Positions 13,188 through 52,897 of a stretch of 64,000 bases of DNA are shown piece after piece. The position numbers and the translations under genes were made by a program. Below the pieces are notes generated by a model. It saw nothing but the letters and a program-made list of their open reading frames with translations, did not search any database and was not told where the DNA came from. Source of the stretch: a virus; IMG/VR virus record IMGVR_UViG_3300008262_002626, positions 1-64,000 of that record; one strand, given 5' to 3'. How positions within the stretch are numbered: position 1 is the stretch's first letter; each line of letters begins with the position of its first letter.

Positions 13188-14705
13188 TTATGTTGCTATA
13201 CCTGCATTCTTTTTTACTGTATCAAGTTCGTCTGGTTCTGCAGGTTCTTGTGGAATAATTTGTGGTTGATCTTGTTGTGGTTGAACTGCTGTAGGTGTTG
13301 TATTGCTAGGTGGTAAACTTGGAGTAAGTTTAGTCTTGGCCTGCATAACTGTTAATTCTGATAATAACGGTTCCATAGTAATGGAATTCCAAATCTTTTT
13401 ATTATCACCAGTAGCATGATATCCCATCTTAACTAAACTTTTACCTGAGTTTTTATCGAAGATGTTTATTTCAGGTCTTGGCTCTCCGTTGTTACTTACA
13501 CCTTCTCTATAGGAAACAGTTAGGTCAATATTACCTGCAACTAATTTTTGCATTAGACCCTTAAAATTGTGTACTGTACTGATGCCTTTTTTTCCTAGTT
13601 GCACAAGACGAACTGTGTCATCACCTTTTGTAGCATGATGTACAATTACTGATGCTATTCGAGATATAACTCCAGCTTCGTCTCTAGCGTCAAATCCTGC
13701 TAATTGTTCTTTTAGTTGACGAGTTGCTTCTTTATAGGCCTTAGTCCAAAAGGCTACTTTAGTGGTTGGAGTCCTTTTTGGTGTATCGATAGTAACACCA
13801 AGAGGTCCGAAAAAGTTTACAGTACTTTGCCATATCCCCTTACTGCTTTTAACATCAGATGTTATTGATCCTGCGCCTTGTTGTCCAAATTGACTACTAC
13901 CTGCTTTTAAACTAATCTTGAGATTTTTCAAAGGTCTAACTTCACCGTTGGCTGTTCTCACAAACGCTTCGATGTCTGTCTTTTTGCCTTTTTGATCACT
14001 CATTCCGTCGCTTTGGACCCAGATAGCATCAACCTTTCCATTCTTATAAAAGTAGTCTGCGTATTTGTCTATCTGTCCGCTATTAGCATAATGAACAGCA
14101 CTAGGTAACAAGGGACTATATGTTTCCCAGAAACTAGGAGACTGCATAAACACTTTTGTAGGTTCACGGACTGCTACTGTAAATTTAATAATGTCAGCAA
14201 TTTTACTATTCTTATCAGCTACTGTATATGTACTATTTCCTTGGCTGATTGCTTTATTAAGACAATCAATCACGTCTTTATCTGTAATGTCTTCTATACT
14301 ATTGCTACCGCGCTTGATTAGTTTAGCCACGACAGCCGCACTTAAAACAGGCTCTGAGAGATCTCCTACATTCCCTTCTGTACTGCCTTTTTGTCCTGGG
14401 GCATGTACTAGACCGCTTTGTATGCTATTATCGGTTCCAACAATATCTATGTATGTTTTATTTGGACGTTTGAAACTTCTAACAACGCTGCCAGTCCCAA
14501 ATTGTATTTTAGGAGTTCTTGCAGGAGAACTTTTAATCCATTCTAAATCTTCGCTGGGATCAAAATCAGGTACTATCTTTTTAATAGCAGTTAATAGGGA
14601 CTTGCCCTTCGCTGACGATGCTCCTACACGAACTTTGTGTCCGTAGGAATACTTGTCTTTTCTGGTAAAAATGCTGGCTTCGCCGATAATTTCAAAGGTC
14701 TTCAT
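13188..14705 (-). CDS. Late protein with capsid-targeting-like N-terminus; possible PD-(D/E)XK-type nuclease
   Basis: Start MKTFEIIGE 5 nt after TAAATA; KTDI...KISLK motif. Confidence 0.55.
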   Translation of the reverse strand: MKTFEIIGEASIFTRKDKYSYGHKVRVGASSAKGKSLLTAIKKIVPDFDPSEDLEWIKSSPARTPKIQFGTGSVVRSFKRPNKTYIDIVGTDNSIQSGLVHAPGQKGSTEGNVGDLSEPVLSAAVVAKLIKRGSNSIEDITDKDVIDCLNKAISQGNSTYTVADKNSKIADIIKFTVAVREPTKVFMQSPSFWETYSPLLPSAVHYANSGQIDKYADYFYKNGKVDAIWVQSDGMSDQKGKKTDIEAFVRTANGEVRPLKNLKISLKAGSSQFGQQGAGSITSDVKSSKGIWQSTVNFFGPLGVTIDTPKRTPTTKVAFWTKAYKEATRQLKEQLAGFDARDEAGVISRIASVIVHHATKGDDTVRLVQLGKKGISTVHNFKGLMQKLVAGNIDLTVSYREGVSNNGEPRPEINIFDKNSGKSLVKMGYHATGDNKKIWNSITMEPLLSELTVMQAKTKLTPSLPPSNTTPTAVQPQQDQPQIIPQEPAEPDELDTVKKNAGIAT

Positions 14706-14713
14706 ACGAATAT

Positions 14714-15412
14714 TTATCGTATTTCTGGGAACAGACAATCCTGGATAAAAACACGTACATCTTCCTCGTCTAAACCTAAACTTGTCATAACACGGGGTGT
14801 ATGGGGGTTTTGTTTTTGATTTTGTGCGTAATAGTTCTGTTCAAAAGTAGTGTCTGCAACCATATTATTAGTTTGACCCACAGTTTCTAGGTAGTGTTCA
14901 ATACCCTTTTCAGCCATAGCAAATATCTGATCTAGTTCTGTTTCATCTTGCACATTGCCTGCGGCAACCATGCTAGGACTAAAAATACGTTTTGCCCAAT
15001 CAGGAAGCTCACGTTCTCTGCGCCATTCTAGTTTCGATGCTTCATTAGCGAACCAATCACACATAGGATGTTCTTTATCAGAGGTAGGACTATAATCGTA
15101 AAAACAGCCAGTGATCTTACGAGCACCGGCAATAACATCAAAACCAAATATAGGAGCAGGATTGTGTATATGTGGGAAGATGCAACAGTGCATCATCCAC
15201 AGTCCTTTTGTTTCTCGGGCATCTACTACATCAACGTGGGCTCTTCGATAATTACCTGATGACCATACACGATTAACCCATCCTGGTTGATTAAATCGAT
15301 TCATTCCAGGTTCGAATACTTCTATTCCAGTATCGTTAAATGATTTTTCTAAGAGATGCTGGATACTGATCAATGTATCCCAAACTTTACTCTGCTGGTT
15401 GTTCAACATCAA
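14714..15412 (-). CDS. Ferredoxin-dependent bilin reductase (PcyX/PcyA family)
   Basis: RRAHVDVVD, MMHCCIFP, PIFGFDVIAG, LPDWAKRIFS, QKQNPHT; next to heme oxygenase. Confidence 0.85.
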   Translation of the reverse strand: MMLNNQQSKVWDTLISIQHLLEKSFNDTGIEVFEPGMNRFNQPGWVNRVWSSGNYRRAHVDVVDARETKGLWMMHCCIFPHIHNPAPIFGFDVIAGARKITGCFYDYSPTSDKEHPMCDWFANEASKLEWRRERELPDWAKRIFSPSMVAAGNVQDETELDQIFAMAEKGIEHYLETVGQTNNMVADTTFEQNYYAQNQKQNPHTPRVMTSLGLDEEDVRVFIQDCLFPEIR

Positions 15413-15947
15413 CGATTTCCATCATCTGTTCGAAGGTCTTAGCGGCAAAGTCAAAGCATACCTTTGCTTCTTCTGCTAGACTGTCATCAAGTTTGGTACG
15501 GATTATTTCTTTAATTTTTTCAGGTTCGTCGCCAAACTGATAATACTTACCTTGGCCCGGAACACGTTTAGCAATCATCTGTCCGCCGCTAAGGTCTCCC
15601 ATATGGCGAACATAGATATGAGCCATTAGTTTGTTAGGATCGTTTTTGATGCTTAGAATATACTTTAAGTATTCGTCAACTACGGGAAAGATTTTAGGTT
15701 GACCATAGTCTTCTTTCCATAGCTCTAGAAAATCTTCTAGGATAGCCGGTGCTCTACGAATCTCAGGAATATCTTGGAATAGACCGTGCGGCATAGCACA
15801 CACTTCTAACACTTCGTACATAAGATGTTGATTCTTGAGATATGTTGCGTAGATCTTAGGATCAACGTGTCCGGAAAATAAGACTTTAACAAAAGGCCTA
15901 GTTTCTGCTCTTCGATGTTGTTCCCAAGTTAGTTCTTTTAAACTCAT
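15387..15947 (-). CDS. Heme oxygenase (biliverdin-producing)
   Basis: LKELTWEQHRRAE (proximal His) and AHIYVRHMGDLSGGQMI. Confidence 0.92.
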   Translation of the reverse strand: MSLKELTWEQHRRAETRPFVKVLFSGHVDPKIYATYLKNQHLMYEVLEVCAMPHGLFQDIPEIRRAPAILEDFLELWKEDYGQPKIFPVVDEYLKYILSIKNDPNKLMAHIYVRHMGDLSGGQMIAKRVPGQGKYYQFGDEPEKIKEIIRTKLDDSLAEEAKVCFDFAAKTFEQMMEIVDVEQPAE

Positions 15948-16246
15948 TCTTCCTCCAACTTAATTTGTAAAGGAAACCCGTTACTTCTAGCTTGGTTAGT
16001 TGCTTCAACTGCTTTCGCTTCGGCAATCTCAAAACTGTAAACTCCGGCGATACCGCTACCTGTTTCGTGTACAGTTAGCATAATCTCTTGAGCACTATCT
16101 ATTGAGTGTCTAAATATTTCCATTAATATGGAAATAACAAACTCCATAGGAGTCGAGTCATCATTAAGAAGTATAACCTTCCAACGCTTAGGTTCGCTTA
16201 CAGTAACCTTAATCTTTTCATCTAGTTGGATATCTGTGCTAGGCAT
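15944..16246 (-). CDS. clpS: ATP-dependent Clp protease adaptor ClpS
   Basis: KVILLNDDSTPMEFV, VHETGSGIAG, FPLQIKLE. Confidence 0.93.
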   Translation of the reverse strand: MPSTDIQLDEKIKVTVSEPKRWKVILLNDDSTPMEFVISILMEIFRHSIDSAQEIMLTVHETGSGIAGVYSFEIAEAKAVEATNQARSNGFPLQIKLEEE

Positions 16247-16257
16247 GTCTTTCTCTT

Positions 16258-16807: not shown

Positions 16808-18703
16808 TTAGTCTTTTTTATCAACCTCTTTGAACTCCGCATCTACGGTTTGTTCGCCTTGGGTTGTTTGGCTTTGAGCGGCAGACTCAGAGGCTTGCTT
16901 TTTGGCAAACACTGGACTAGCCGATTCAAATAGTTTTTGTACTGCGGTGTCGATCGCAGACTTATCTTCGCCTTTGATAGCATCCTCGACTGCTGTTTTT
17001 GCAGTTTCAAATAAAGACTTTTCTTCGTCTGACAATTGATCCTTGTAAGTATCAAAATCTTTGTTAATCGAATGAACAGCACCTTCTGCTTGGTTGCGAG
17101 CTTCAATAAGTTCCTTAGCCTTCTTATCAGCTTCGGCATTTTCTTCTGCCTCTCGAACCATACGTTGTATTTCTGCTTCTGAAAGTCCTGAATCCGATTT
17201 AATAGTAATTTTATTTTCTTTACCAGTCGACTTGTCCTTAGCACTGATGTTCATGATACCGTTCGCGTCAATGTCAAAAGTAACTTCGATCTGGGGCATG
17301 CCGCGTGGAGCAGGATTAATACCGTCTAATTTAAATTCGCCAAGTGTTTTATTGTATTTGAATAACTCACGTTCGCCTTGTGCTACTTTAATATCAACAG
17401 CTGGTTGATTATCTTCTGCTGTTGAGAATGTTTGACTGGCCTTAGTTGGGATTGTTGTGTTCTTTTGAATCAACTTAGTAAACACACCTCCCATTGTTTC
17501 GATGCCTAGAGATAATGGAGTAACGTCTAGCAATAGAACGTCTGTCTTATCTCCTCCCAACACCGCACCTTGGATGGCAGCACCGGCAGCAACGGCCTCG
17601 TCTGGATTGACGTCTTTACGTGGAGCCTTACTAAACAGTTTCTCAACTGCTTCCTGTACTTTAGGCATACGTGTTTGACCACCGACAAGGATAACTTCAT
17701 CAATGTCGCTTGCGCCTACACCCGCATCTTTTAGTGCTTGTTTACAAGGATCGATAGACCGCTGGATTAGATCTTCGACCATTGATTCAAACTTAGCACG
17801 GGTAATAGTAACATTCATGTGCTTAGGCCCAGATGAGTCGGCTGTAATATAAGGTAAATTTACTGCTGTTGATTGTGTGCTTGACAATTCAATCTTAGCT
17901 TTTTCTGCGGCATCTTTTAGACGCTGTAATGCCAACATGTCTGTCTTTAGATCAATACCATTTTCTTTCTTAAACACTTCAACAAGATGATCCATAATAC
18001 GTTGGTCAAAGTCTTCGCCGCCTAGGAATGTATCGCCATTAGTTGACAACACTTCGATTTGTTTATCGCCTTCGACGTTGGCAATTTCAATAATACTGAT
18101 GTCGAATGTACCGCCACCGAGGTCATATACAGCAACCTTGCGGTCTTTCTTATCTTGTTTATCAACACCGTAGGCTAGAGCAGCCGCAGTTGGTTCGTTG
18201 ATAATACGTAATACTTCCAAACCTGCAATCTTACCTGCATCTTTAGTTGCTTGTCTTTGACTGTCGTTAAAATATGCAGGAACTGTGATGACAGCTTTTG
18301 TGACTGCTGTACCAAGATAGTCTTCAGCAGTCTTTTTCATCTTGCGTAGAACTTCTGCGCTAACCTGTGGAGGTGCAAGTTCTTTATCTTGTGCCTTGAT
18401 CCAAGCATCACCGTTCTTTGCTTCTGTAATTTCATAAGGCATTAAATCAATATCCTTCTGAACTTCTTTTTCAGAAAACTTACGGCCAATTAAACGCTTG
18501 GCGGCATAGATTGTATTTTTTGGGTTTGTGACTGCTTGTCGTTTTGCTGTTGCACCTACTAAAATTTCTTCTGGTGTGTACGCAACAATTGATGGTGTTG
18601 TACGGGCGCCTTCTGAGTTTTCAATAACTTTAGCTACACCGTTTTCTAGGATGGCTACGCAACTATTTGTGGTGCCAAGGTCAATACCTATGATTTTGCT
18701 CAT
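16808..18703 (-). CDS. dnaK: Chaperone DnaK (Hsp70)
   Basis: [37 protein letters not shown]; start reassigned to MSKII after AGGAGA. Confidence 0.98.
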
Positions 18704-24824: not shown

Positions 24825-25151
24825 TTATACTCGAAAAGATTCTCCACAGCCACAGCGATCACGTTCATTTGGATTAATGAATTCAAAACCTTCATTTAGT
24901 CCATTTTTTACCCAATCCATTGTTAGGCCGTTTAAGTAGGGAAGACTTTTAGCATCAACTAATACTACAAAGTTTGGCTGGGCGAAATTTGTAACTCCAA
25001 CTTCTGGGTCGTATTTGTCTACATATTCTATAGTGTATGCTAAACCACTACATCCTGTAGTTTTGACTCCTAACCGAATACCGACACCCTTACCTCGTCG
25101 TTCAAGTAGTTGCTTGATTTTCTGTTGGGCTATGTCGGTTACGGTAATCAT
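24825..25151 (-). CDS. iscA: Fe-S cluster assembly A-type carrier IscA
   Basis: GVKTTGCSGLAY, FINPN...CGCGESF. Confidence 0.95.
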   Translation of the reverse strand: MITVTDIAQQKIKQLLERRGKGVGIRLGVKTTGCSGLAYTIEYVDKYDPEVGVTNFAQPNFVVLVDAKSLPYLNGLTMDWVKNGLNEGFEFINPNERDRCGCGESFRV

Positions 25152-34655: not shown

Positions 34656-34840
34656 TTATTTGCCTAGTTTAGTGGCACGTTTAGCCATTTTCTCAACTTC
34701 ACTTTGGCCGGAATCTGTTCCTACTTCTGGTTCTTCTTCTGCCGTCTTTAGTGTAAGTCCTGTGCCGTCAAACTTATCTACCATTTTATGTAAAACCTGT
34801 TGTTCAGGTGGTAGTTGATCTTCTTGATCCCACGCGGCCA
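34656..34840 (-). pseudogene. Probable 3' fragment of a gene lacking its own start
   Basis: Protein-like C-terminus, but the only upstream start is a TTG inside the previous gene with no SD. Confidence 0.4.
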
Positions 34841-35742
34841 ACTTCAGCTGCCGGAGCGGCCATTGGCTCTTCTTCAGCACCTAATTCTGGTGGTGCGCCT
34901 AAGTCTGCTGTCATTTCGTCGCCTGTTGGTGCGCCCATTGCCATAGGTGCCTCACCGCCTGATACGATAGATAATGCTGATGAAAGGCCTGTACGTGATG
35001 TTTCAAGTGCTGTATAAATTGCCTCAAGTGCTGGCTTGACTGATTCTTGCCAACGTTGTGCAACGTCGCTACCTTGTGTTTCTCTTATAGAGTCTACTAA
35101 TTCTAAAAGCTGTTCTGCCTTCATGGCGGCCACGTCTTCTAGCCACCCTGTGATGCGGTCAACCATATCTTTGGTAGCCATAATGGTTTCAGCTTTATCT
35201 TCTTCGCCTTCCATTAGAACCCAGCCGGCAACGGATTCGTTTAGGTCGTAACGTAGTTGTAGTTCGGCCTTTAATTCTTCCTTGTCTGACTCGCCTAGTT
35301 CCATACGTGATAAAGCAGTATTGATCCAAGTTGTTGGAACTGACTCACTCATTGCACGTTTGCGAATAGTTGCGAAATAAACATTTTCGCCTTTCTCTTT
35401 ACCATATTGTTTTTTCATAGATGCCTTCATTCCTGAATCGTCTGTTTTAGCTTTGATATCTTTTTCTTTCTTTTTCTCAGCTGGAGTCATTTCTCTTTCT
35501 AGGATCTCTTGATTAATAACATCTAGCATTAGTCTTGTTTTTTGATATGTTGGACTTTCTAGCACAGAATCAAAGCTTTCTGAAAGCTCTAGTTGGCTTA
35601 TTCGTGTGCGTAGCTTATTACGTGCATCTTCAAGTTGCACATCTGTAAACTGCTCAAAGTTTAGCTTGTAGCCAAACTGTTTAGCTAGACTCTCGTTGAG
35701 CTGACTAGCTGTAGGTTGTTTTGAAAATTCTCTAATTTGCAT
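34804..35742 (-). CDS. Acidic helical late protein (prohead core/scaffold-like)
   Basis: MQIREF start after TAAATA; many LxE sites; E/A/P-rich tail. Confidence 0.55.
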   Translation of the reverse strand: MQIREFSKQPTASQLNESLAKQFGYKLNFEQFTDVQLEDARNKLRTRISQLELSESFDSVLESPTYQKTRLMLDVINQEILEREMTPAEKKKEKDIKAKTDDSGMKASMKKQYGKEKGENVYFATIRKRAMSESVPTTWINTALSRMELGESDKEELKAELQLRYDLNESVAGWVLMEGEEDKAETIMATKDMVDRITGWLEDVAAMKAEQLLELVDSIRETQGSDVAQRWQESVKPALEAIYTALETSRTGLSSALSIVSGGEAPMAMGAPTGDEMTADLGAPPELGAEEEPMAAPAAEVGRVGSRRSTTT

Positions 35743-35771: not shown

Positions 35772-36233
35772 TTATACAAATGACCACTTAAACATCTTAG
35801 AAATTTCTTGCTTAAAATGCTGTTCTTTGAATGAGCTAGTTTCAAATCTAGTCAGCAATATCTGATATCTTTCGTAGTCTTTGGTTAATTTCATATTGTA
35901 TTTAAACACTTGAGAATCAATATGATTTGCCCAGTATTGTGTATCCAAGCGTTTAATTTCTTGTAGTTTTTCTAACTTAATCTCGTTATAGGCTTTTGCT
36001 GCCATAAGAGCACAGGTTTTTAAGAAAAACTCTCCTACATGCTGATCATGTTTAAAATTATACACAGACCAGTTGCCGGCTTTGGTCTGTTTAACGATAA
36101 AGTCTTCGTAGGATATCGAACCGTTGGGTAAAACTGTAATAGGAAGATTGCGATCTAGCTCTTCCTTAAATTGTTCAGCTAGGGCTCGTACTTTAGAACG
36201 ATTGATTTTATGTTTTGATTTTTTCATTTGCAA
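35772..36233 (-). CDS. Hypothetical protein
   Basis: ORF track. Confidence 0.65.
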   Translation of the reverse strand: MQMKKSKHKINRSKVRALAEQFKEELDRNLPITVLPNGSISYEDFIVKQTKAGNWSVYNFKHDQHVGEFFLKTCALMAAKAYNEIKLEKLQEIKRLDTQYWANHIDSQVFKYNMKLTKDYERYQILLTRFETSSFKEQHFKQEISKMFKWSFV

Positions 36234-36417
36234 CTACAGTAGGATTTTCCATTCCTATCTTAGTTACCAAACTTTTGCGGATCATGGCCTCAACTTTGAA
36301 TTGCTCGTGTTCGCTTAGAGTAGAGAGCTTAACTGGACGAGTTAGCTTTTTTAATATTTCTGCTTCTTCGTTAGTAGTCCAGATTTCGAAGTTATCAACT
36401 AGTTCGCTTATTTTCAT
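36208..36417 (-). CDS. Small hypothetical protein
   Basis: MKISELV start; ATGA coupling. Confidence 0.65.
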   Translation of the reverse strand: MKISELVDNFEIWTTNEEAEILKKLTRPVKLSTLSEHEQFKVEAMIRKSLVTKIGMENPTVVANEKIKT

Positions 36418-37112
36418 AGCCCAGATAGTTTCTTAATTGCTAGTAGTTCTTGATTTTCAAACTTTAGACTTGGATTTGTAGGATGTTGTCCAGGAAGACC
36501 AATAAAATCTAAACCTCTACCTACCATATTTGATTTTTGTAGGTATTCGGGACTTAGTCCATCCTTGCCAATCAATCTTGCAATAGTTGTTGGATCTGTA
36601 GTTTTCTCCCACTCAACTGGAGAAAGTACTTTTTTGTCTCTAGGTACTTGTCCTGACTGTACCGCTTTGATTCTATATTCTAACTGCTTCTTTTCCCAGG
36701 GTTGGGTAGCCTGTTGCATTAATGCAGTCAGCTGAGAAATATAATTTTGTGCTAGTTGATCATTAGGACCTTCTTCCATGTTCTTTTCAGCATTGACTGT
36801 AGTACCAGGTGCAATATTATCAGGAGTATTTAAGGTTAAAGTATTATTCTCGCCGGGTTTTAATTGTGATAGTTCGACAGTTTTGGCCTGCCCGTCTGGT
36901 CCGGTAATAGTTGCTGTGCCTGCGGCTTGGTTAACCTGGGAAATTTTACCTACCATACCACCTGGTTGCGTTTCGTTGACTTTCTTTTTGTCATCTCCCG
37001 GAGCAACAGGACCTTGTGGCTTTATCGGCTCAATATACTGCTTTGGCTTCTGTGCATACTTTTTAGCTCTAAAGCCTTTTTTATGTTCACCTACGATCTG
37101 ATTAACCTTCAT
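36414..37112 (-). CDS. Late protein with capsid-targeting-like N-terminus
   Basis: Start MKVNQIVGE after GGAG; C-terminal LAIKKLSGL. Confidence 0.65.
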   Translation of the reverse strand: MKVNQIVGEHKKGFRAKKYAQKPKQYIEPIKPQGPVAPGDDKKKVNETQPGGMVGKISQVNQAAGTATITGPDGQAKTVELSQLKPGENNTLTLNTPDNIAPGTTVNAEKNMEEGPNDQLAQNYISQLTALMQQATQPWEKKQLEYRIKAVQSGQVPRDKKVLSPVEWEKTTDPTTIARLIGKDGLSPEYLQKSNMVGRGLDFIGLPGQHPTNPSLKFENQELLAIKKLSGL

Positions 37113-37803
37113 TTTGTTCTCCAATGCTAAGACTAGCACTTTCTAATTTGTCTATATATTTACGCAATTTATCAATCTTACCTCTCGCTCTGAGTAACTT
37201 AAAAGCTAGATTTTCAACAGAATGTTCGCCGCCTTGTTCTAGGCCTGCTTGGCGGAGTCGTCTTATATTAGCCATAGTTTCTTTGGCTGTGGTTAGATCA
37301 TCAGATTTTAATGCTTGATTGATGCGTGAAGCATAGTTTCGAGCTTTGCTTTTTACTTCTTGTGCTGTAGCACGAGGTGCTCCCGGTTTTGGTTCACTGA
37401 GCCAGCTGTTATTTAAAACACTATAGATTCCAGCCGAGTAGTGTCGTTGTTCGTGGTCTTGTACATAAAGTTCTACATCGATATCTTTGATTTTAATAGA
37501 GTATCGACTGTTGTAGACATTCTTTTTAGCATCGTAGAGTTCTACCTTTTCCGGTGAGTCTACTACTGCTACTAGGTGCAGATCTAGATCACTGCTGTCG
37601 TTATAACCATAGCTGGCATTTGAGCCACTAATAGTTATGTCTTTAAGATCTAGTTTTTCTACGTTGAGATATTCTGCGAAGTGTCGAGCTATTTTTAGTA
37701 GTTGTAGTCTAACTTCGGGTATGAGTTTATTGTTGTCCCAGAGTTTAGGATTTAACTCGGGATGATAGGTAATAGGAGCAACTGATAGTTCTTGAAAGTT
37801 CAT
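37102..37803 (-). CDS. Pol-beta-superfamily nucleotidyltransferase
   Basis: SGSNASYGY...SDLDLH and VELYVQD. Confidence 0.75.
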   Translation of the reverse strand: MNFQELSVAPITYHPELNPKLWDNNKLIPEVRLQLLKIARHFAEYLNVEKLDLKDITISGSNASYGYNDSSDLDLHLVAVVDSPEKVELYDAKKNVYNSRYSIKIKDIDVELYVQDHEQRHYSAGIYSVLNNSWLSEPKPGAPRATAQEVKSKARNYASRINQALKSDDLTTAKETMANIRRLRQAGLEQGGEHSVENLAFKLLRARGKIDKLRKYIDKLESASLSIGEQNEG

Positions 37804-41474: not shown

Positions 41475-41879
41475 TTAAACTATCGACTCTCGATCAAACA
41501 GGTTAGGGTGCTTTTTACCCCAATTACGCATAATCACTGCGGCTTCGGCATTGGCTTCGTTTTCTTGTGGGCTACCGGTAGCACCAGGATCGTCGCCATC
41601 AAGTTCTCGATTTAGATCTTGTTTGTAGTGGACAAGCTCGTGTGCCAGTGTACGACAGACATCCATGATGTGTCTGTTAACTACAGTAATACGAATATGT
41701 TCGTTACCGTAGCCTCCGAAACTAGAATGTTCAACACTACCTTTAGCATCAAACTTAAATTCAAACTTAGGAAGGCTGTCAAGTTCTAAGTGTTCTGCGG
41801 CAAATCGAACAAATTCAAGCAAGGTGCTGTAAGTATCTTTACGACTCATTCCTTCGGTTAGTAGCTCTTTGATTTTCAT
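41475..41879 (-). CDS. HExxH zinc metallopeptidase-like late protein
   Basis: RTLAHELVH...ENEANA; MKIKELLTE start. Confidence 0.7.
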   Translation of the reverse strand: MKIKELLTEGMSRKDTYSTLLEFVRFAAEHLELDSLPKFEFKFDAKGSVEHSSFGGYGNEHIRITVVNRHIMDVCRTLAHELVHYKQDLNRELDGDDPGATGSPQENEANAEAAVIMRNWGKKHPNLFDRESIV

Positions 41880-42292
41880 TACTTCTTCCTACCTTGGCAA
41901 TGAGCACGTTGGCTAAATCCTTTTGGATTGTTACAGTTGATAGAACGCTTGTATTTGTCGCTCCACTCTTCACCAATATTTTTATCTATACCTCTGCTAC
42001 CTGTACCACCCTTACGACGTTTGGCAGCTAGTTCTTCAATGCCGTGGCGAATCTGTTCTAAGTTCTGCTCTAGACCCATAAACAGACCGCCCTTGGCATC
42101 ACGCACAATACTCTGCCACACTAGTAAATCGTTTGACTCTGCACGTTCTGCTAGATCTTTTAATTGAGCACGGGCCTGCATGATGCGCCCTTTTAAGCTC
42201 ATTGGATTAGCTTTTTCGTGGCCGTAGATTACGGGATCGTTAGGATCACCGGTCATATCTATTGGAGTTTCTAGCAGTTGATGTATCTTCAT
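41879..42292 (-). CDS. Late protein with capsid-targeting-like start and basic Cys-containing tail
   Basis: MKIHQLLE; C-terminal WSDKYKRSINCNNPKGFSQRAHCQGRKK. Confidence 0.65.
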   Translation of the reverse strand: MKIHQLLETPIDMTGDPNDPVIYGHEKANPMSLKGRIMQARAQLKDLAERAESNDLLVWQSIVRDAKGGLFMGLEQNLEQIRHGIEELAAKRRKGGTGSRGIDKNIGEEWSDKYKRSINCNNPKGFSQRAHCQGRKK

Positions 42293-42307: not shown

Positions 42308-43639
42308 TTAGTAGATTTCGCGCCACTGTAGACCTGCACCTACGTTAGTGCTCTGAGCGCCAATATTAGTTGCTACAATCAAATAAATTTCGCTATCAGT
42401 ACTGTCATAGTTTTGTACGATATAATTCTTTTTAGCTTCGCTAGGTAAGTTAGATGCTGGCGCACCACCTGCTTTTTGACTACCCTGTGTGCTGGCTCCT
42501 ACCCAACCGTTGTCTAGCTCGTCACCGTCAGTCCAAGTAGTAGCATCTACATTATATTGTACACCGCTGTCATCATCTACATCTGTCCAGGTAGTGTCGT
42601 TAAGAAAAGTACTATTGGGTAGTTTTAACAAGCGCCATTTAATACTGTCGCCATCACTGAACATCTTAAGATTGCCCATACGCACAATCATACGATTGGC
42701 ATAGGTTCTAAATGCAGTTTTTAATCTAATGGCTATGATAGGCGATGTAGCACCTGCGGCAATATTTTTTAGGGTAGGACTAGTTACAGCCCAATCAATA
42801 CCTGCTTCCACATAGCCACCTTCGCTGGCCACAGTACTACAGATCTGATCAAAGTAGGCACCTGTGGTTGCGCCTGTGTTTACAATTTCACAGCGTACAG
42901 GCAAGTTAGGTGTACTCATATACACAGTAGACAAATTATTAGAGTGATGGAATATGTGACAGGGTATGAATGAACCTTCGTGTACAAATCCCACAGTAAC
43001 CGAACCTACCCCTAACCATTGAAACTCTATAAATGACAGTTGTGTTTTAGTAATATCTAAGCTAAATTGGCTTCCGCCTTGTCCGTTACAACTATCAATG
43101 TTCCATTCGCTTTGTGTCTTACGAACTTCTTGTGGCGCTCCAGTTATATAACTGCGTATGACCCAACTCAGTGTACCATCGCCCGCCTGTTCAAAGTAGA
43201 TGCCATTGTTGTCATCGTAGTAACCTGTGCGTTTGGTTACATTAGGTGTTGCCGCATAGAAATTAAAACTGCTGAGTATCTGCTGACTCTTGCCAGGCAT
43301 ATAATGATGATAGAATTTGGTCTGATGCACTACACGGCTGCTAGGATCGTTTGAGGTTGTTAGTCTAGCACAGGCTTTGTTAGGTTGAAATGCCACAGTA
43401 CCGCCATTGACTAGGTAATCTACAAAGTTTGGATCTAATCCATATAAATGCTTATAGTCGCCTAAGGTAAACGGACTAGACATACGAATACGGCCAAACG
43501 CATCTGTCTGTCCTACCTTAAGTGTGGTACGAAGCACAGGTTGCCCTAGAGCATTGTACTCCATGGTATTATGTAGGTCTAGTAGATTAGACTCATGCGG
43601 ATGCTGATAGTTAGTTGAATTAGGTTGTTGAACGCCCAT
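42308..43639 (-). CDS. Beta-rich probable virion protein
   Basis: TDAFGRIRMS, QWLGVG; structural-gene context. Confidence 0.6.
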   Translation of the reverse strand: MGVQQPNSTNYQHPHESNLLDLHNTMEYNALGQPVLRTTLKVGQTDAFGRIRMSSPFTLGDYKHLYGLDPNFVDYLVNGGTVAFQPNKACARLTTSNDPSSRVVHQTKFYHHYMPGKSQQILSSFNFYAATPNVTKRTGYYDDNNGIYFEQAGDGTLSWVIRSYITGAPQEVRKTQSEWNIDSCNGQGGSQFSLDITKTQLSFIEFQWLGVGSVTVGFVHEGSFIPCHIFHHSNNLSTVYMSTPNLPVRCEIVNTGATTGAYFDQICSTVASEGGYVEAGIDWAVTSPTLKNIAAGATSPIIAIRLKTAFRTYANRMIVRMGNLKMFSDGDSIKWRLLKLPNSTFLNDTTWTDVDDDSGVQYNVDATTWTDGDELDNGWVGASTQGSQKAGGAPASNLPSEAKKNYIVQNYDSTDSEIYLIVATNIGAQSTNVGAGLQWREIY

Positions 43640-43642
43640 GGA

Positions 43643-44659
43643 TTACAAGCCCCATTTATTGCTGAGATAGTTTTCCACGTTAGAAATTTCAGTAGAATTT
43701 AACGCATGGGTAAAAATTAAGAACTCGCCTATATCACCTGTATAGTAGTTGGCACCATTATTGTTACCAATATATAAAGTAGTATTACTTGCACTGAGAG
43801 TATCACCTACTGTTCCGGCAAATGTAAGTGTAATATCAGTTTTATCGTATCGGTACTTTAAACTTGCGGCATTGGTAGTTTGTGTACCGTCATAGGCAAA
43901 AGTATGTATATGGAATGCTGTGCCATCATTGACTACTGTACTAGTTCCTACGCCGCCAGCAGCCTTGGCTACAAACTTTCCTGCCGTAGTATCATAAATC
44001 AATCCGGTAGCACCACTATTGGTTACAAATATATTTGGGCTTCCTGTTGTTGCTGTCATCTTCATCACTACAAAAACTGTCAGGGCAGGAGCACTGGCTA
44101 ACGAAGAATACGGATTGATACTTAAACCATCGTTACCGTCAAAACGAACAACACTTAGAGTATTCTGTTCACTGGTCTGGTAACTGGCTCTAGTAGTAGC
44201 ACCGCCAATTGGGTTAGCGTTGTGGGCGAAACCAGACTTGTCTGTCCATTGCGTGAACGTCTGGCCGTCACTAGGGTTGCTTGGAACGAATTGTACTCCA
44301 TCACTGCCATCATACCAAGATTCAAGCTGAACAAAAGTTTCTGTAGGAACTGCTTCTTCAATTGTAGCAGGTGCCGACAATGATGCAATTCCTACCCAGG
44401 GCCTAGCTGGTAGTAAAGGGTCTGCATCTGCTGTGGTTCCGTAGGCCAAACTTAATGCATCTAAATCATAAACGTTGTTAGTTCTATAATAGGGTTTAGA
44501 TGAATCTACTGATCCAGAAATAGTTCCATCATCAGCAACTATTTTACCTTGACGTTTTGCCTGTGCAATATCTAATTTAGCCACCTGTCTTGCGGCTTTG
44601 TTAGCAACAGGATCAGATCCGTCGCCTGAAATTAAATGAGCAATACCGTTAGCTGACAT
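43643..44659 (-). CDS. Virion protein with LamG/concanavalin-like domain
   Basis: WYDGSD...QWTDKSG...FDGND...GDIGEFLIF...VENYLSNKWG. Confidence 0.7.
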   Translation of the reverse strand: MSANGIAHLISGDGSDPVANKAARQVAKLDIAQAKRQGKIVADDGTISGSVDSSKPYYRTNNVYDLDALSLAYGTTADADPLLPARPWVGIASLSAPATIEEAVPTETFVQLESWYDGSDGVQFVPSNPSDGQTFTQWTDKSGFAHNANPIGGATTRASYQTSEQNTLSVVRFDGNDGLSINPYSSLASAPALTVFVVMKMTATTGSPNIFVTNSGATGLIYDTTAGKFVAKAAGGVGTSTVVNDGTAFHIHTFAYDGTQTTNAASLKYRYDKTDITLTFAGTVGDTLSASNTTLYIGNNNGANYYTGDIGEFLIFTHALNSTEISNVENYLSNKWGL

Positions 44660-44994
44660 TATTCATTCTCCGGATTATGTTGGTGCCCAGGATAAGCACT
44701 TGGATGCTGTACACGAATATCGCTAGGATGTTTAGGTTCTTGCCAACCACCGCCAGCATCTTTAGTTACTGCGTCTATATCTGCATATTCTTCCTTAGGT
44801 GCATTTGAAAAAACGCTAGCAGAGCCGTCTGTATCGTCTTTGCTGACTAGATCTACTATCTGTTTAAATTTGCGAATAGTATCCGGATTCTCTTCTTGCG
44901 GCTCTGCTACAGCAACTACCTGTATTTCTGGTTCTGCTGTTTTCTGGCCGTCAATTAAGTCTAAAATACTGCGTATGATTTCTTGGGCTCTCAT
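44659..44994 (-). CDS. Hypothetical late protein
   Basis: MRAQEII start; TAAATA at 45019-45014. Confidence 0.65.
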   Translation of the reverse strand: MRAQEIIRSILDLIDGQKTAEPEIQVVAVAEPQEENPDTIRKFKQIVDLVSKDDTDGSASVFSNAPKEEYADIDAVTKDAGGGWQEPKHPSDIRVQHPSAYPGHQHNPENE

Positions 44995-45036: not shown

Positions 45037-46239
45037 ATGATAAACAAAGAACCTTTCAAAAAACTACTACAAGATCTAAAAGATTCAGGAAAATATCGTG
45101 TTTTTAACGATATTGTACGAGAAGCTGGTAAATTTCCTACAGCTATTTGGTATGGACCCTATGCTATTAAAAATATAGTTAACTGGTGCTCGAATGATTA
45201 TCTAGGCATGGGACAGCACAAAGTTGTTATTGATGCTATGCACACAGCATTAGATCATACTGGGACAGGATCAGGCGGAACTCGTAACATCGGAGGAACT
45301 AGTCATTATCATGTAGCTTTGGAACATGAACTAGCAACATTACATAAGAAAGAACGTGCCTTGCTGTTCAGTAGTGCTTACGTTGCAAATGAATGGACAC
45401 TGATCGCATTGAGCAAGATCGTACCCAATATTGAGTTTATCAGCGATAGTAAGAATCATAATAGTTTGATAGTCGGAATACAACATAGTAAAGCTAAGAA
45501 AGTAGTCTTTAAACATAACGACTTAGAAGATCTAGAACAAAAACTTAAAATTAGTTTTGCACAAGGCAATACTCCTTGCATAGTATTTGAAAGTGTTTAT
45601 AGCATGGATGGAGATGTTAGTCCTATCAAAGAAATATGTCGCCTAGCTAAAAAATACAAAGCAATCACTTATATCGACGAAGTACACGCAGTAGGACTCT
45701 ACGGAAATCGCGGAGGAGGCAAAGTAGAAGAATTAGGCCTAGAAGATCAAATTGATATTATCAACGGAACATTGGGTAAAGCATTTGGTGTTCAGGGCGG
45801 ATACATCGCAGCCGATAGTGATATCGTTGATGCTATCCGTTCAGTGGCTGCTGGCTTCATCTTTACAACATCGATGAGTCCTGTAAGTTGTGCCGGTGCT
45901 CTGGCCGCAATCAAGTGGTTGAAGGAGCATAACGAAATACGCGAAAAGCACCAAGAACGTGCTCGTAAATTAAAGTATCGATTGAACAAAGCAGGTATTA
46001 CAGTTATGGAGTGTTCAACTACACACATTGTTCCTGTACTAGTAGGTGAGGCTAAGAAATGTAAAAAGATCAGTGATTACCTATTAGCTGAACACGGTAT
46101 CTATGTACAGCCAATTAATTACCCAACTGTCGATGTAGGCACAGAACGACTACGCTTTGCTCCTACACCATACCATGATGACGGTATGATCGAAGATCTA
46201 GTTGATGCTCTTAAACAAGCATTTGAGCAATTTGAGTAA
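45037..46239 (+). CDS. hemA: 5-aminolevulinate synthase (C4/Shemin pathway)
   Basis: [58 protein letters not shown]. Confidence 0.95.
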
Positions 46240-46839: not shown

Positions 46840-47244
46840 TTATGTAATAGGGCCGCCTTCGATCCAGGCATCACATGTCCGTTTAGCGGCACATTTAAAT
46901 TTTAAAAACTTACAGTAGCCTAACTGCCCTGCATCTACTGTATCGTGTGGATTTGAACCGGGCTCACTGCCTATACCTGTTGCTATACAATCCTGCATTT
47001 TTTCTGATATATCAAATGCTCCGCAGTTACCACAACGATTATTTTTAACTGATTCTATATCTTTAGTGTTCCACTTATCTGCTAGTTTTTGCCAATATTC
47101 ATCATTTGGCTCGTTAGGATTTAGTGGGCCGTAATGATACTCGTTTATAGCCTTTTGTCTATTCTTTAGATTAAGATCGATATCTTGGGTAGCTGGTGGA
47201 CACCCCTTCTCTAGTGCCTCAACGACATTGATATAATTTCTCAT
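46840..47244 (-). CDS. Cys-rich metal-binding protein (HiPIP-like Cys spacing)
   Basis: CGNC...GYC...TCDAW. Confidence 0.55.
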   Translation of the reverse strand: MRNYINVVEALEKGCPPATQDIDLNLKNRQKAINEYHYGPLNPNEPNDEYWQKLADKWNTKDIESVKNNRCGNCGAFDISEKMQDCIATGIGSEPGSNPHDTVDAGQLGYCKFLKFKCAAKRTCDAWIEGGPIT

Positions 47245-48368
47245 TTCTTTTTTGCCCTTCCGGCTTTCATGTTAGCTAACCAATGTGCTAGTTGTCCTTT
47301 ACGTCCACCCTGCTTGGCAGTCTTACGTAGACTACTAATGCTAGCTTTAGTATTGATACCATGGCGTTTAGCATCTCCTTTGTCTTGTGGATTGCGTCCA
47401 TCTGCAAAGTTTTCATCTATGTCGTGTGTTGTTAGTCCTAGATCTTTTAGATACTTTAAGTATTCGTGTTCTAGTGGTTCACTGCCAAAAGCCATTACAG
47501 TCTGTGGAGGTCCTTTACCAAAATCATGTTTTCCTAGACCATCGAGATCGCTAATGTGCTGTCCTAACTTATACCAATCATATACATCGCTAACGTCGAT
47601 CTTTACAGTACCTTTAGGCCAAGGTATTAAATCACCCTCTTCTATACTTTCGCCACCTCCGTCTCCACCACCGCCATCTCCGCTGTAGCCTGAGTCATAC
47701 CCGTACCAACCATATGGGCCTGGGCCGTATGCTCCGAAACGATACTTAGTCTTTTTCTTACGCCGTTTAGCTTCTTCGATATTCTGTGTTACACCACCAG
47801 GGCCAACATAGATAGCACGGAAATCTACTTGAGGATATTCTTTTTGTAGTTCCTTAAATACACGCAGATTGCTCATGCTATCATCATACAAGCGAACATG
47901 TCCATATTGTTTAGTGTCGAGGTATTTACGAACCCATACCGCTTTCTTGTAAGCTGGAGATTCATCTCCAGGTAAGTTACCTGCACGATGCACGTGAACA
48001 CGGCTCATGTTTATGCCTAAATCTTTAAATGTCTGCAGAAACTCTTCTTTGTTGTCAAAGTCTGCACGGGCTGTCAGCATGATAACTTTGGCATTACCTG
48101 CATGATTAAGAATTGTTTTAAGTTTTCTAATCATCGGAACGATCGGCTTGCTTTCTTGGCGGAACTTTTCTGCATCTCTAAATTCGCCAAAGTCAAACTT
48201 TTCACCCGGTTGTAGTTGGTAGTTATTAAACTCTTGGTTAGTTAAATCACGTATGACCTGCCCTTGTGCATTTAAAACTTTAATCTTTGCTGTCGTGTGA
48301 AGTAATGTATCATCTATATCAAAGATGATTAGATCTCGATTACCGGGAGTAAATTCATTCGCTCTCAT
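47241..48368 (-). CDS. HAD-family phosphatase with appended modules
   Basis: FDIDDTL, MLTAR, K, LYDDS; start MRANEF. Confidence 0.75.
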   Translation of the reverse strand: MRANEFTPGNRDLIIFDIDDTLLHTTAKIKVLNAQGQVIRDLTNQEFNNYQLQPGEKFDFGEFRDAEKFRQESKPIVPMIRKLKTILNHAGNAKVIMLTARADFDNKEEFLQTFKDLGINMSRVHVHRAGNLPGDESPAYKKAVWVRKYLDTKQYGHVRLYDDSMSNLRVFKELQKEYPQVDFRAIYVGPGGVTQNIEEAKRRKKKTKYRFGAYGPGPYGWYGYDSGYSGDGGGGDGGGESIEEGDLIPWPKGTVKIDVSDVYDWYKLGQHISDLDGLGKHDFGKGPPQTVMAFGSEPLEHEYLKYLKDLGLTTHDIDENFADGRNPQDKGDAKRHGINTKASISSLRKTAKQGGRKGQLAHWLANMKAGRAKKK

Positions 48369-49969: not shown

Positions 49970-49974
49970 CTCTT

Positions 49975-50526: not shown

Positions 50527-50539
50527 GCAATATTTACAT

Positions 50540-51949
50540 TTATGCGCGAGCTTGGATCGCTCTTCTGACATCGCCTGCTGTGAGTATTCCATCCTTGGTA
50601 ACATCTAACCCGTCGTTCCAGTCGTAGACTGCACTTCCTCTTTTAGCAATGACGTAACTGTTAGGTTTTCCTACACCTGCAGGCCAGAACACTGAAAGAT
50701 AAAGATCGCCTAACTTCATTCCTGGTTGTACACCTCGCATGACAAAATACTTGTAGACATAATCTAGCTGTTCAACTGCTGACATTTTCTTTAGTTCATC
50801 AACTGTTGTCCCAAGAGATCGTGCTGTGTCTGGCATAAACTGAATTAATCCAGTAGCCTTAGACTTTTTGTTTTGTATTGTATGATCAAGGCCAGATTCT
50901 AACCTCATGATAGCAATTAGATCTGATTTAGCTACTCCTAACTTATCGGCAATCTTTTGTAGTTTGTTATTAAAGTCTGGATCCTGTATTGTTGTAGTGT
51001 CAATCTTACGTTTCTCAAACGATCCTCTAGCTGGTTTAACTTCTGCATCTGTACTCTTAGTTAGGCCTTTGAATAGCTCAGGTTTAGATTTGATTATTGC
51101 ATTTAACTTCGCGACAGTTTCTGGTCCTGGATCTCCGTCAACACTAAGTCCATTGTCTCGTTGGAACAGCATTACTGCCGCAGATGTTTCTCTTCCTCTA
51201 ATACCGTCGACGCCGTGTGTTGGTAACTTATAGCCTAGAGCCAATAATGCTTTTTGTACGTCTGCTACTGCTGGCTCTCGTCGAGTCTTAGGAACATCAA
51301 TTATAAACGATCCAGGTGTGGTGGGCTGTACAGGCTTACCGCTTTGATCCGGCTTTGCTGGTGTTGTGCTAGCGGACCTACCTGCTAATGATATAGCTTC
51401 TTGGGCCGCGGATTTGTAAGCCCCTGGAGTGCCATGTATTCCATCTGAAGAAAGACCTTTGCCATCTAGGTCAACAACAGGAACACCTACAGCAGATTTA
51501 ATTGCCTGTCTAACTTCTTCTTGGTAATCACCTGAATAATACTTGGCCAATCCTGGAGCTCTCGCCTGGCCGTTTGGAAATAAAATAAACACTACAGTAT
51601 GTCCTGCAGCCTTGGCAGCATCAACTACTCGTCTTACGTTGCTGGCAATCGTAGCTGGGGGTACTAAGGGTCTTTTACCTTTAGAATCCATATGTGCTCT
51701 TGCACTGTTAGCAGTATCGTTGGCACCTTGGCTAATTAAAACTATTTGATTTTTTGGAATAGTTTCAATACCTACTGGGCCACCGTTCTTTGTATGGCGC
51801 CCATTAAAATTATTTTGGTGTGTCGATGGAACTCCACCGTTGGCTCTATTAATAACACCTTTCTGATAGGCCAATCCTTCAGCATGACTATCGCCTACTG
51901 AATAGACTTTTCTTTCTTCTTCAAATAGTTTAAATTCTGCGTATCTCAT
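50540..51949 (-). CDS. SGNH esterase, peptidoglycan-binding domain and lytic transglycosylase fusion
   Basis: GDSH/GAND/DGIH; VDGIRG.ET..AV..FQ...GL.VDG..G.ET; ESG...ATGLIQFMPDTA. Confidence 0.85.
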   Translation of the reverse strand: MRYAEFKLFEEERKVYSVGDSHAEGLAYQKGVINRANGGVPSTHQNNFNGRHTKNGGPVGIETIPKNQIVLISQGANDTANSARAHMDSKGKRPLVPPATIASNVRRVVDAAKAAGHTVVFILFPNGQARAPGLAKYYSGDYQEEVRQAIKSAVGVPVVDLDGKGLSSDGIHGTPGAYKSAAQEAISLAGRSASTTPAKPDQSGKPVQPTTPGSFIIDVPKTRREPAVADVQKALLALGYKLPTHGVDGIRGRETSAAVMLFQRDNGLSVDGDPGPETVAKLNAIIKSKPELFKGLTKSTDAEVKPARGSFEKRKIDTTTIQDPDFNNKLQKIADKLGVAKSDLIAIMRLESGLDHTIQNKKSKATGLIQFMPDTARSLGTTVDELKKMSAVEQLDYVYKYFVMRGVQPGMKLGDLYLSVFWPAGVGKPNSYVIAKRGSAVYDWNDGLDVTKDGILTAGDVRRAIQARA

Positions 51950-51950
51950 A

Positions 51951-52553
51951 TTATTCTGCTATTGGGTTAACTTGTTGACCGCTTGCATATTTTTCCCAAT
52001 GCAAGTGAGGGCCTGAACTAAAACCAGTGCTGCCAACTGCACCTACTGTTTGTCCTTTTTTCACTTCATCACCTTGTCTTACTGATATCTTTGATAGATG
52101 CATAAATCTATGTTTCACGCCGCTGGCTGTAATTAGTTCGACTAGATTGCCTGCTGAGCCTGCCATACCAGCAAATTGTATCTTGCCATCATCAGGTGCG
52201 ATAACTGGAGTTCCTGTAGGTGCTCCGATATCAACACCCGGGTGTTTAACTTTATTTCCTTTAGGGCCAGTTACAGTTCTACCATAGTGTCCTGTGATCG
52301 TGCCCTTGGTTGGCATGATTTCACCTGAGGAAGTTGTTGGAGATCTAGGTTGTGTGTTTGTTCTGGGAGCAGGTGCTGAGCCTGGCGACTGTCCGCTTAG
52401 ATATTTGTCTACAGCGGCCTTAGTGTAAGGTCCCATTATTCCGTCATCTTTAGTAGGACCTAGATCATAACCTTTGGATATCAAATATCGTTGCATTTGT
52501 TTCACGATTGGACTAAAAACACCTTCGAGTAATTTAAATTCTGAGTAACGCAT
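51951..52553 (-). CDS. Peptidoglycan-binding domain plus M23 peptidase
   Basis: DGIMGPYT; HPGVD, HLS, GSTGFSSGPHLHWE. Confidence 0.9.
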   Translation of the reverse strand: MRYSEFKLLEGVFSPIVKQMQRYLISKGYDLGPTKDDGIMGPYTKAAVDKYLSGQSPGSAPAPRTNTQPRSPTTSSGEIMPTKGTITGHYGRTVTGPKGNKVKHPGVDIGAPTGTPVIAPDDGKIQFAGMAGSAGNLVELITASGVKHRFMHLSKISVRQGDEVKKGQTVGAVGSTGFSSGPHLHWEKYASGQQVNPIAE

Positions 52554-52555
52554 CG

Positions 52556-52897
52556 TTAACTCCAATCGGGCAAAGGCCCGCCGTACTTGTGGCCTTTGAT
52601 CTTATGTCCGCCTACCTTAACACGGCTCTTGGGACTTTTACCAAGTTTATGACTCTTTTCGCCATCACGAGCACGTAGACCTTGACTCTTACAGCTGGAC
52701 AGTTGGCTAGCACCTAATTCGTCGTCGGGCTTAGAACTTAGGCATAGTTTACGACTAGCCTTTCCTGCTTCGTCTACATCAACTGATTTGTATTGAGGCA
52801 CTGGTTCGTGCCCGCGGCTAGGACGGCTACCAGATCTTGCTGGGCGTTTAGGGTTTATACCTATAGGGTCTTCGACTATAAATTCTTTTGCTCGCAT
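52556..52897 (-). CDS. Basic late protein with capsid-targeting-like N-terminus
   Basis: MRAKEFIVE, 7 nt after TAAATA. Confidence 0.7.
   Translation of the reverse strand: MRAKEFIVEDPIGINPKRPARSGSRPSRGHEPVPQYKSVDVDEAGKASRKLCLSSKPDDELGASQLSSCKSQGLRARDGEKSHKLGKSPKSRVKVGGHKIKGHKYGGPLPDWS

Follow-up and report, generated by a model that had tools for sequence, protein, structure and literature searches.

In phage T4, proteins are addressed to the interior of the assembling head by the capsid-targeting sequence (CTS), a short N-terminal leader found on unrelated, mostly basic internal proteins (IPs) (Mullaney & Black 1996, cited through PMC9026906 and PMC3012670). Packaging of IPIII requires only its first 10 residues (MKTYQEFIAE); among these, residues 4 and 7 are important in targeting, while processing depends on residues 8 and 10 (PMC9026906). 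The prohead protease gp21 follows the rule [I/L]-x-E, as in the junction ...I-A-E/A of IPII and IPIII, where the slash marks the cut (PMC9026906). Proven gp21 substrates are gp24, IPI, IPII and IPIII (T4 record annotation; PMC9026906), and the same processing applies to enzymes and head-core proteins (Alt, which is an ADP-ribosyltransferase, gp24, gp67 and gp68). Here, we describe a comparable element in a 64,000-nucleotide stretch of viral DNA (the window), the first 64 kb of the 91,076-bp linear IMG/VR contig IMGVR_UViG_3300008262_002626. Twelve of its minus-strand genes, coding for otherwise different proteins, start with a common leader of about nine residues (the tag), which is likely to be this lineage's version of the T4 CTS, used for capsid targeting and then removed by proteolysis.

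The contig has a CheckV completeness of about 20%, which identifies it as a fragment of a jumbo phage genome; the genes of the window lie chiefly on the minus strand. A megablast search of one 4-kb stretch of the window against cultured phages gave no match, and the nearest isolates are relatives at the protein level only. For example, the 443-aa structural protein encoded at 42308–43639 (phrog_1645) shares 51% identity with a virion protein of the T4-like cyanophage S-RIM32. The phage described as "moraphage" (PMC12619734) belongs to a separate lineage with Bacteroidota hosts.

The preliminary description of this DNA had quoted twelve N-termini, and each of them does start with an ATG on the minus strand, at the upper coordinate given in Table 1. 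Longer frames from upstream TTG or GTG codons are possible at four of the starts (14705, 37112, 48368 and 52553); at 14705 the ATG is supported by database homologues, which begin with the tag. The tag has the nine-residue consensus M-[KR]-hydrophobic-x-E-hydrophobic-hydrophobic-x-E. A search with the pattern ^M[KRQN]..[EQ][FILV] picks precisely these twelve among the 162 open reading frames (ORFs) of a crude gene call on the whole contig, while about 0.9 matches would be expected from the rate of the pattern inside proteins and about 3.4 from position-specific N-terminal frequencies. Because the pattern was fitted post hoc, positions outside it were examined as well. A hydrophobic-x-E motif ending at residues 8–11 is present in 7 of the 12 tagged and 9 of the 150 untagged ORFs (p = 1.4e-5), and residue 3 is hydrophobic in 11 of 12 against 59 of 150 (p = 5e-4); both biases recur as trends in three related contigs. 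A tag-matrix score of at least 8 is reached at only 2 of 493 internal methionine sites, compared with 10 of 162 N-termini.

The tagged ORFs are confined to a minus-strand block at 13–53 kb, making up 12 of the 54 ORFs inside it and none of the 108 outside (p = 8e-7). The plus-strand early block, whose ORFs are strongly led by Shine-Dalgarno sites, contains 30 ORFs and no tag, so the motif is not equally common in early or metabolic genes, a check that had been proposed with the preliminary description. The block also contains untagged genes, namely one for a class I/II aminotransferase, assigned with Pfam, and others whose products look, by N-terminus or size, like a DnaK-type chaperone, subunits of ribonucleotide reductase and an IscU-like protein. 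Tagged proteins have a median isoelectric point (pI) of 9.3, against 6.6 for the remaining ones, and are in this respect similar to the T4 IPs, which are likewise basic.

Scanning IMG/VR with the 443-aa structural protein yielded 80 related loci, with 54–94% identity. In these loci the tag is kept in homologues of tagged genes (for example 4/4, 6/6, 5/6, 8/9 and 10/13) and is nearly always missing from homologues of their untagged neighbours (0/77, 0/18 and 0/14). Several of the seeming losses are miscalled gene starts, in which an internal methionine restores the tag. Two untagged virion structural protein genes located between tagged ones serve as an internal control, the 0/77 belonging to the first of them. 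The carriers had been called unrelated, which holds in so far as 83 distinct tagged proteins, collected from four long contigs and the loci, still fall into 30 clusters once the first 12 residues are removed; it is slightly overstated, as some modules downstream of the tag are common to a few of the tagged proteins. Among 82 distinct leaders, residue 2 is Arg or Lys in 65, residue 3 hydrophobic in about 72, residue 5 Glu in 68, residue 7 Ile, Leu, Val or Met in 52 and residue 9 Glu in 32. The hydrophobic positions are encoded by varied codons (TTT, ATC, TTA, CTA, ATT, ATA and GTA, among others), which indicates selection on the peptide rather than on the RNA. The domains behind the tag have been shuffled, with the tag itself retained.

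The boundary between leader and mature protein was analysed in the family of the 505-aa protein, using the best 120 of its 168 matching database clusters, of which 116 could be anchored by a mature-start pattern. Leader length ranges between 8 and 21 residues (9 in 87 of the 116), and it is the mature protein, rather than the initiating methionine, with which the leader keeps register. Counted back from the putative cut, P1 is Glu in all 116 sequences, P2 is variable, P3 is Ile or Leu in 106 and P4 is Phe, Ile or Leu in 92, while the residues that follow, A-S-I-F-T...Y-G-H-K-V, are invariant or nearly so. Judged from these alignments, the leader boundary of this family obeys the [I/L]-x-E cleavage rule of T4 gp21. 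In other tagged families, too, a variable leader gives way to a conserved start immediately after Glu, as in ...L-T-E/G-M and ...I-V-E/D-P. AlphaFold 2 models of two of the putative cargo proteins show the tag as a short detached helix with a predicted local distance difference test (pLDDT) score below 50, beside well-modelled domains.

The tag and the T4 CTS share the core E-hydrophobic-hydrophobic-x-E, ending in [I/L]-x-E. The tag is one residue shorter (9 against 10), and its hydrophobic residues 3 and 6, hydrophobic residue 7 and Glu9 have the spacing of the T4 targeting and processing residues, offset by one. A position matrix made from the leaders of this lineage was then run over 278 T4 ORFs, with a deletion of one residue permitted. 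The five highest scores were those of gp61.1, gp24, IPIII, IPII and IPI, in that order, with gp2 seventh. Without the one-residue deletion, none of gp24 and the three IPs scores; the tag is therefore a close variant of the T4 CTS, not an identical copy. Of the T4 proteins mentioned, gp2 (gene 2, 76061–76885; our locus L136), the head-internal DNA-end protector, starts with MAIFQIINE, and gp61.1 (NC_000866, 18966–19130; L134), a 54-aa hypothetical protein from the early primase region, with MKTFKEFIKE.

Neither gp21 nor gp23 was found when the 91-kb contig of the window itself was searched, which is explained by the contig being a fragment. The head genes are present in related contigs. The 141-kb contig G002, which encodes a structural protein 84% identical to that of the window and orthologues of the window's tagged genes, contains in a row a portal gene, an 80-aa ORF, a 301-aa acidic ORF, an S77 protease gene, a scaffold-like ORF and a Gp23 gene, reproducing the T4 order 20-67-68-21-22-23. 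Portal (PF07230, 368 bits), Peptidase_S77 (89.5 bits, cut-off 27) and Gp23 (329 bits) all score above their Pfam cut-offs. The module is also found in contig G003, where an additional ORF follows the 80-aa gene, and further tagged genes adjoin these head modules. Like T4, the lineage thus combines a gp21-type protease with T4 head-gene synteny, and conserved hydrophobic-x-E sites lie close to the N-termini of its capsid protein, scaffold and protease. The 80-aa ORF, which occupies the position of T4 gene 67, has a tag-like start that our search pattern missed because residue 2 is hydrophobic. For the cargo proteins, no sequence homology to Alt, gp67 or gp68 came to light in a comparison that covered gene position.

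The G002 capsid protein is about 70% identical to its counterparts in the jumbo phages Phosso, PA5oct and GAP32. An expanded tag family is absent from PA5oct, where only about seven of 455 ORFs match, weakly to moderately. Of its seven best matrix scores, six were looked up, and gp333, gp254, gp246 and gp104 are virion proteins according to electrospray ionization tandem mass spectrometry, while the base rate of virion proteins is 93/461 (PMC7318152). The gp333 gene lies between portal and protease and is a homologue of the 80-aa ORF of G002; its product starts with MKINDIITE. This enrichment lends modest support to the reading of the tag as a head address; propeptides and internal proteins are not discussed in the PA5oct paper (PMC7318152).

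The tag is real, non-random, modular and selected as protein, and it is as near a likeness to the T4 CTS as sequence comparison can provide. The preliminary description had proposed a leader like the T4 CTS, with a gp21-type site, on unrelated late proteins, and this proposal finds strong support in the conservation of the tag in orthologues, the [I/L]-x-E boundary, the recovery of the T4 IPs and gp24, and the S77 head module. In the mechanism we envisage, the tag would form a short amphipathic helix that attaches to the scaffolding core as the prohead assembles, so that any protein carrying it becomes enclosed. The gp21-type (S77) prohead protease would then cut after the Glu of hydrophobic-x-Glu, usually at Glu9 and possibly at Glu5 in leaders without Glu9, freeing the mature protein inside the head, and the cargo would exit via the tail along with the DNA. 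Core binding, cleavage, retention in the virion, ejection and the action of the cargo are steps that we infer. Targeting and removal are the probable functions of the leader; ejection of the cargo and its proposed roles in takeover, anti-defence and wall penetration are somewhat less so.

Several observations weigh against this mechanism. Five of the twelve leaders (MQIREF, MNFQEL, MRAQEII, MRANEF and MKISELVDNFE) have no clean hydrophobic-x-E at residues 8–10 and fit [I/L]-x-E at residues 3–5 only, or nowhere; these may be cut elsewhere or remain uncut. The best T4 match, gp61.1, is not known as a head protein. As the matrix was trained on N-termini chosen by the pattern, its power is partly circular, and the independent evidence is limited to positions 3, 7 and 9 and to the T4 and PA5oct tests, the latter enrichment being small (4 of 6, binomial p ~0.02) and coming from clustered genes. 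The roughly 20% of the genome represented by the window's contig contains no protease or capsid gene, so a gp21-type protease can be connected with the tag only through related contigs. The TAAATA box in front of the tagged operons is not specific to them, as it also precedes nrdA, dnaK, the IscU-like gene and others, and the two wall hydrolases have ordinary endolysin-like architectures. Finally, the phage is uncultured, and the destination of the tagged proteins is a prediction from sequence.

The missing second Glu in five leaders would also fit a tag that is a genuine protein address with another purpose than head packaging, cleavage and ejection, such as an uncleaved helix for docking onto the tail or baseplate, or a chaperone, protease or membrane signal. 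Tagged genes adjoin tail-fibre-like and structural genes, the 312-aa tagged protein has just a weak match to a virion structural protein family, and in T4 itself the wall hydrolases are parts of the tail and baseplate (gp5). We nevertheless regard such an address as rather unlikely, since the matrix retrieves head-internal proteins and gp24 from T4 and not tail proteins, the P1 Glu expected of a prohead protease is present at the leader boundary in all 116 homologues analysed, and the head-core ORF of PA5oct bears a tag-like leader. Moreover, structural proteins encoded in the same operon are untagged, so the tag is not a general mark of virion proteins. For the two peptidoglycan hydrolases alone there is an appreciable minority chance that they are ordinary holin-dependent endolysins, with leaders inherited from a common ancestor or irrelevant: PG_binding_1 combined with M23 or with SLT, in the absence of a signal peptide, is a common endolysin layout, many PHROG endolysin families match, and the M23 hydrolase of PA5oct was not detected in virions (PMC7318152). 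Against this, the leader is followed by a GDSL domain in one protein and by PG_binding_1 in the second, hydrolases of relatives keep the tag in front of other domain layouts, the operon is headed by a third tagged protein that is basic and unrelated, and the matches of the SLT part extend to internal-virion, baseplate-hub and tape-measure families.

An effect at the nucleic-acid level, with A-rich, unstructured first codons favouring translation initiation on late mRNAs that are weakly led by Shine-Dalgarno sites or leaderless, would explain the A-rich codons 2 (AAA or AGA) and 5 (GAA), and several tagged genes do have a TAAATA box 4–7 nt before the ATG and no clear Shine-Dalgarno site. We consider it very improbable, given the many unrelated codons at the hydrophobic positions, the leaders of variable length that hold register with the mature start and not with the ATG, the scarcity of tag-level scores at internal methionines, and the untagged genes at 38578, 40168, 53735 and 6755, whose TAAATA boxes are equally close. 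Chance combined with paralogy, that is, a pattern defined after the cases were seen and fitted to a few related genes, deserves even less weight. Some modules are indeed shared (PG_binding_1 in the proteins starting at 51949 and 52553, common relatives for those starting at 42292 and 48368), but 30 clusters remain after tag removal, enrichment is found at independent, unselected positions, the tag is conserved over about 80 related contigs, and the T4 ranking is independent of this lineage; together with the orthologues and the leader boundary, these results already contradict it.

Table 1. Coordinates of the tagged genes and of other features discussed; positions are those of the window unless a related contig or locus is named.
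Feature	Coordinates	Strand	Remarks
505-aa basic protein, pI 9.4	13188..14705	-	leader MKTFEIIGE; mature start ASIFT
312-aa acidic protein	34804..35742	-	leader MQIREF (I-R-E at residues 3-5); phrog_14154, E 3e-8
69-aa protein	36208..36417	-	leader MKISELVDNFE, then conserved IWTTNEE
232-aa basic protein, pI 9.4	36414..37112	-	leader MKVNQIVGE, then conserved HKKGFRAKKY
233-aa nucleotidyltransferase-fold protein	37102..37803	-	leader MNFQEL
134-aa HExxH protein	41475..41879	-	leader MKIKELLTE, then conserved G(M/L)
137-aa basic protein	41879..42292	-	leader MKIHQLLE
111-aa acidic protein	44659..44994	-	leader MRAQEIIRS; heads a TAAATA unit
375-aa basic protein	47241..48368	-	leader MRANEF; HAD-type D-x-D-D-T start; C-terminal basic module
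469-aa protein	50540..51949	-	leader MRYAEFKLFE; GDSL/SGNH hydrolase, PG_binding_1, SLT lytic transglycosylase
200-aa protein	51951..52553	-	leader MRYSEFKLLE; PG_binding_1, then Peptidase_M23
113-aa very basic protein, pI 10.0	52556..52897	-	leader MRAKEFIVE; first in a three-gene tagged operon
186-aa protein, possible 13th member	15387..15947	-	start MSLKELTWE; matrix score 1.9, next-best after the main set
Two untagged virion structural protein genes (phrog_1645 family; Laminin_G_3 protein)	42308..44659	-	between tagged genes
Untagged metabolic and chaperone genes in the tagged block	16808-18703, 27328-31432, 25102-25509, 45037-46239		
TAAATA box	52905..52910	-	7 nt upstream of ATG 52897; similar minus-strand boxes at 14716, 35774, 37813, 45019
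80-aa ORF in T4 gene 67 position	L084 12779-13021 (G002)		start MILRELF
80-aa ORF in T4 gene 67 position	L085 8308-8550 (G003)		start MLLREFI

Candidate cargo, as predicted for this block, would consist of the two peptidoglycan hydrolases, a nucleotidyltransferase, a phosphatase like those of the haloacid dehalogenase (HAD) group, an HExxH protein and a restriction-endonuclease-like protein, together with several small basic proteins. The six tagged proteins other than these enzymes have no assignable function, several of them being small and very basic. The preliminary assignments hold for the nucleotidyltransferase and the hydrolases and are tentative for the nuclease, the peptidase and the phosphatase. 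The 233-aa protein contains a GS...D-L-D signature, and its AlphaFold 2 model (pLDDT 88, with residues 1–6 below 50) finds the CdnE and ANT(9)/AadA nucleotidyltransferases as top Foldseek matches (prob 0.92–0.97, E 2.5e-4), which identifies it as a nucleotidyltransferase of the Pol-beta type; a sequence match in the PDB, 2rff, is marginal (E 0.11). A weak Pfam match of the same protein to BsoBI was rejected in favour of the nucleotidyltransferase fold. Its family comprises 2124 database clusters from metagenomes, with a conserved N-terminus M[NK]-hydrophobic-Q-E-L. The 469-aa protein contains PG_binding_1 (2e-15; 57.1 bits, cut-off 23), SLT (5e-8; 32.8 bits, cut-off 21.3) and Lipase_GDSL (4e-6) domains, and the 200-aa protein an M23 domain (7e-31; 106.7 bits, cut-off 28.7). 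The Pfam domains that identify the two proteins as peptidoglycan hydrolases score over cut-off, and by inspection neither protein has a hydrophobic signal stretch.

For the 505-aa protein, the confident AlphaFold 2 model (pLDDT 85, residues 1–10 below 50) weakly resembles the monomeric type II restriction endonucleases HinP1I, MspI and HhaI. HinP1I comes out on top in two independent structure searches, at E 0.019 in Foldseek and at Z 6.5 over 191 aligned residues in VIA (MspI, Z 5.7), but scores of this size are often reached by unrelated models. The family of this protein numbers at least 168 database clusters, every one of them from metagenomes, and is without a Pfam domain. The 134-aa protein possesses the H-E-L-V-H motif and is possibly a small zinc metallopeptidase; its family links are faint and consist of a phrog_87 match (E 1.4e-4) and of Peptidase_M78 in 14% of the members of a sibling Atlas cluster, without a Pfam match of the protein itself. 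In the 375-aa protein, HAD motif I is present as F-D-I-D-D-T at residues 16–21, and the phosphatase assignment is tentative, with matches to phrog_415 (E 4e-7) and to Acid_phosphat_B, the latter at 23.6 bits (E 4e-5) below the Pfam cut-off of 27. Searches of PDB sequences with three cargo proteins gave nothing usable.

The remaining tagged proteins illustrate how the tag behaves in individual families. The start M[QN]IRE[FL] is kept in four closer orthologues of the 312-aa protein, and one distant homologue (30% identity) starts differently. Eight of 13 homologues of the 111-aa protein are called with the tag, and an internal methionine restores it in others; two untagged virion structural protein genes are part of the same TAAATA-headed unit. 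The 113-aa protein has the highest matrix score of the whole contig. A protein of the related contig G001, with an N-terminus near-identical to that of the possible thirteenth member, starts with MNLKELTHE and fits the pattern.

Compared with T4, where three IPs are known, at least 12 carriers are present here in 40 kb of a genome fragment, and the putative cargo includes sizeable enzymes such as the wall hydrolases and the nucleotidyltransferase. A closer parallel is offered by the variable internal-protein genes of the T-even phages (Repoila et al.), which likewise encode fast-changing proteins sharing the leader only, with the genes behind it swapped between relatives. Those proteins are small and come from close T4 relatives of enterobacteria, whereas the tag described here is distributed over several operons of an uncultured jumbo phage and precedes multi-domain enzymes.

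The giant phages phiKZ and SPN3US reportedly contain many head-internal proteins that are cut after Glu by a T4-related prohead protease, and are said to eject a large protein mass. That work reportedly concerns cleaved head proteins and not unrelated proteins with a short shared N-terminal address; the head genes of the present lineage are of the PA5oct, RaK2 and T4 type. The T7 gp16-type core protein is a wall-cutting lytic transglycosylase that is kept in the head and ejected to open the peptidoglycan, and the SLT part of the 469-aa protein matches PHROG 342, annotated as "internal virion protein with endolysin domain" (E 1.4e-6). The analogy is functional only, as gp16 is a large core protein without CTS or gp21-type processing.

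A full-text literature search, of incomplete coverage, turned up no paper in which the term "capsid targeting sequence" is used together with jumbo, huge or metagenomic phages. The CTS principle is already published for T-even phages (PMC3012670, PMC9026906); the advance would therefore lie in breadth and type of cargo rather than in mechanism. Put in its widest form, the proposal is that a widespread freshwater lineage of uncultured jumbo phages uses the CTS as a plug-in address for dozens of interchangeable head-loaded enzymes, a first-strike kit acting before phage gene expression that would contain wall hydrolases, a nucleotidyltransferase, a restriction-endonuclease-like protein and a phosphatase; this we put forward tentatively, at somewhat less than even chances. 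If true, a simple sequence rule would allow the injected proteome of uncultured giant phages of the T4 superfamily to be read from metagenomes, flagging candidate anti-defence or takeover effectors that act before transcription. Pre-loaded enzymes, beyond small inhibitors, would then be a major strategy of large phages, and the T4 packaging platform that already exists could serve directly for trials of the nine-residue tag.

Different tagged proteins have two basic C-terminal modules in common, one being W-S-x-K-Y-K-R-S-I-N-C...P-K-G-F-S and the other having the end ...H-W-L-A-N-M-K-A-G-R. In the window they are found in the 137-aa and 375-aa proteins, and in relatives in loci L006, L012 and L052 and in contig G001 (72785–73999). 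The modules are at the protein end in some cases and right behind the tag in others: the C-terminal W-S-x-K-Y-K-R-S...P-K-G-F-S module of the 137-aa protein follows the tag directly in proteins of relatives, and the C-terminal module of the 375-aa protein is common to other tagged proteins, while relatives have the tag and the HAD domain alone. Their recurrence suggests domain shuffling and, possibly, DNA binding. In two relatives of the 69-aa protein (L011 9202–9459 and L012 17739–17993), the tag is followed by 16 inserted residues in which the hydrophobic-x-x-F-E junction is repeated just before the conserved I/V-W start, resulting in two candidate cut sites in tandem.

Most of the tagged genes had been placed in TAAATA-driven units, a placement that holds for the operon heads at 14705, 35742, 37803, 44994 and 52897. 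The boxes are mostly intergenic, just upstream of genes, and the idea that they mark a special gene class was rejected, the box being a general promoter-like element in this phage. Late expression of the tagged genes is plausible, with a box that is unspecific to them. The box ends 0–7 nt before the ATG at the minus-strand starts 6755, 14705, 37803, 38578, 40168, 52897 and 53735 of the window and at 66332 of the contig. This distance leaves no room for a Shine-Dalgarno site, and genes with such a close box may be expressed from leaderless or near-leaderless mRNAs.

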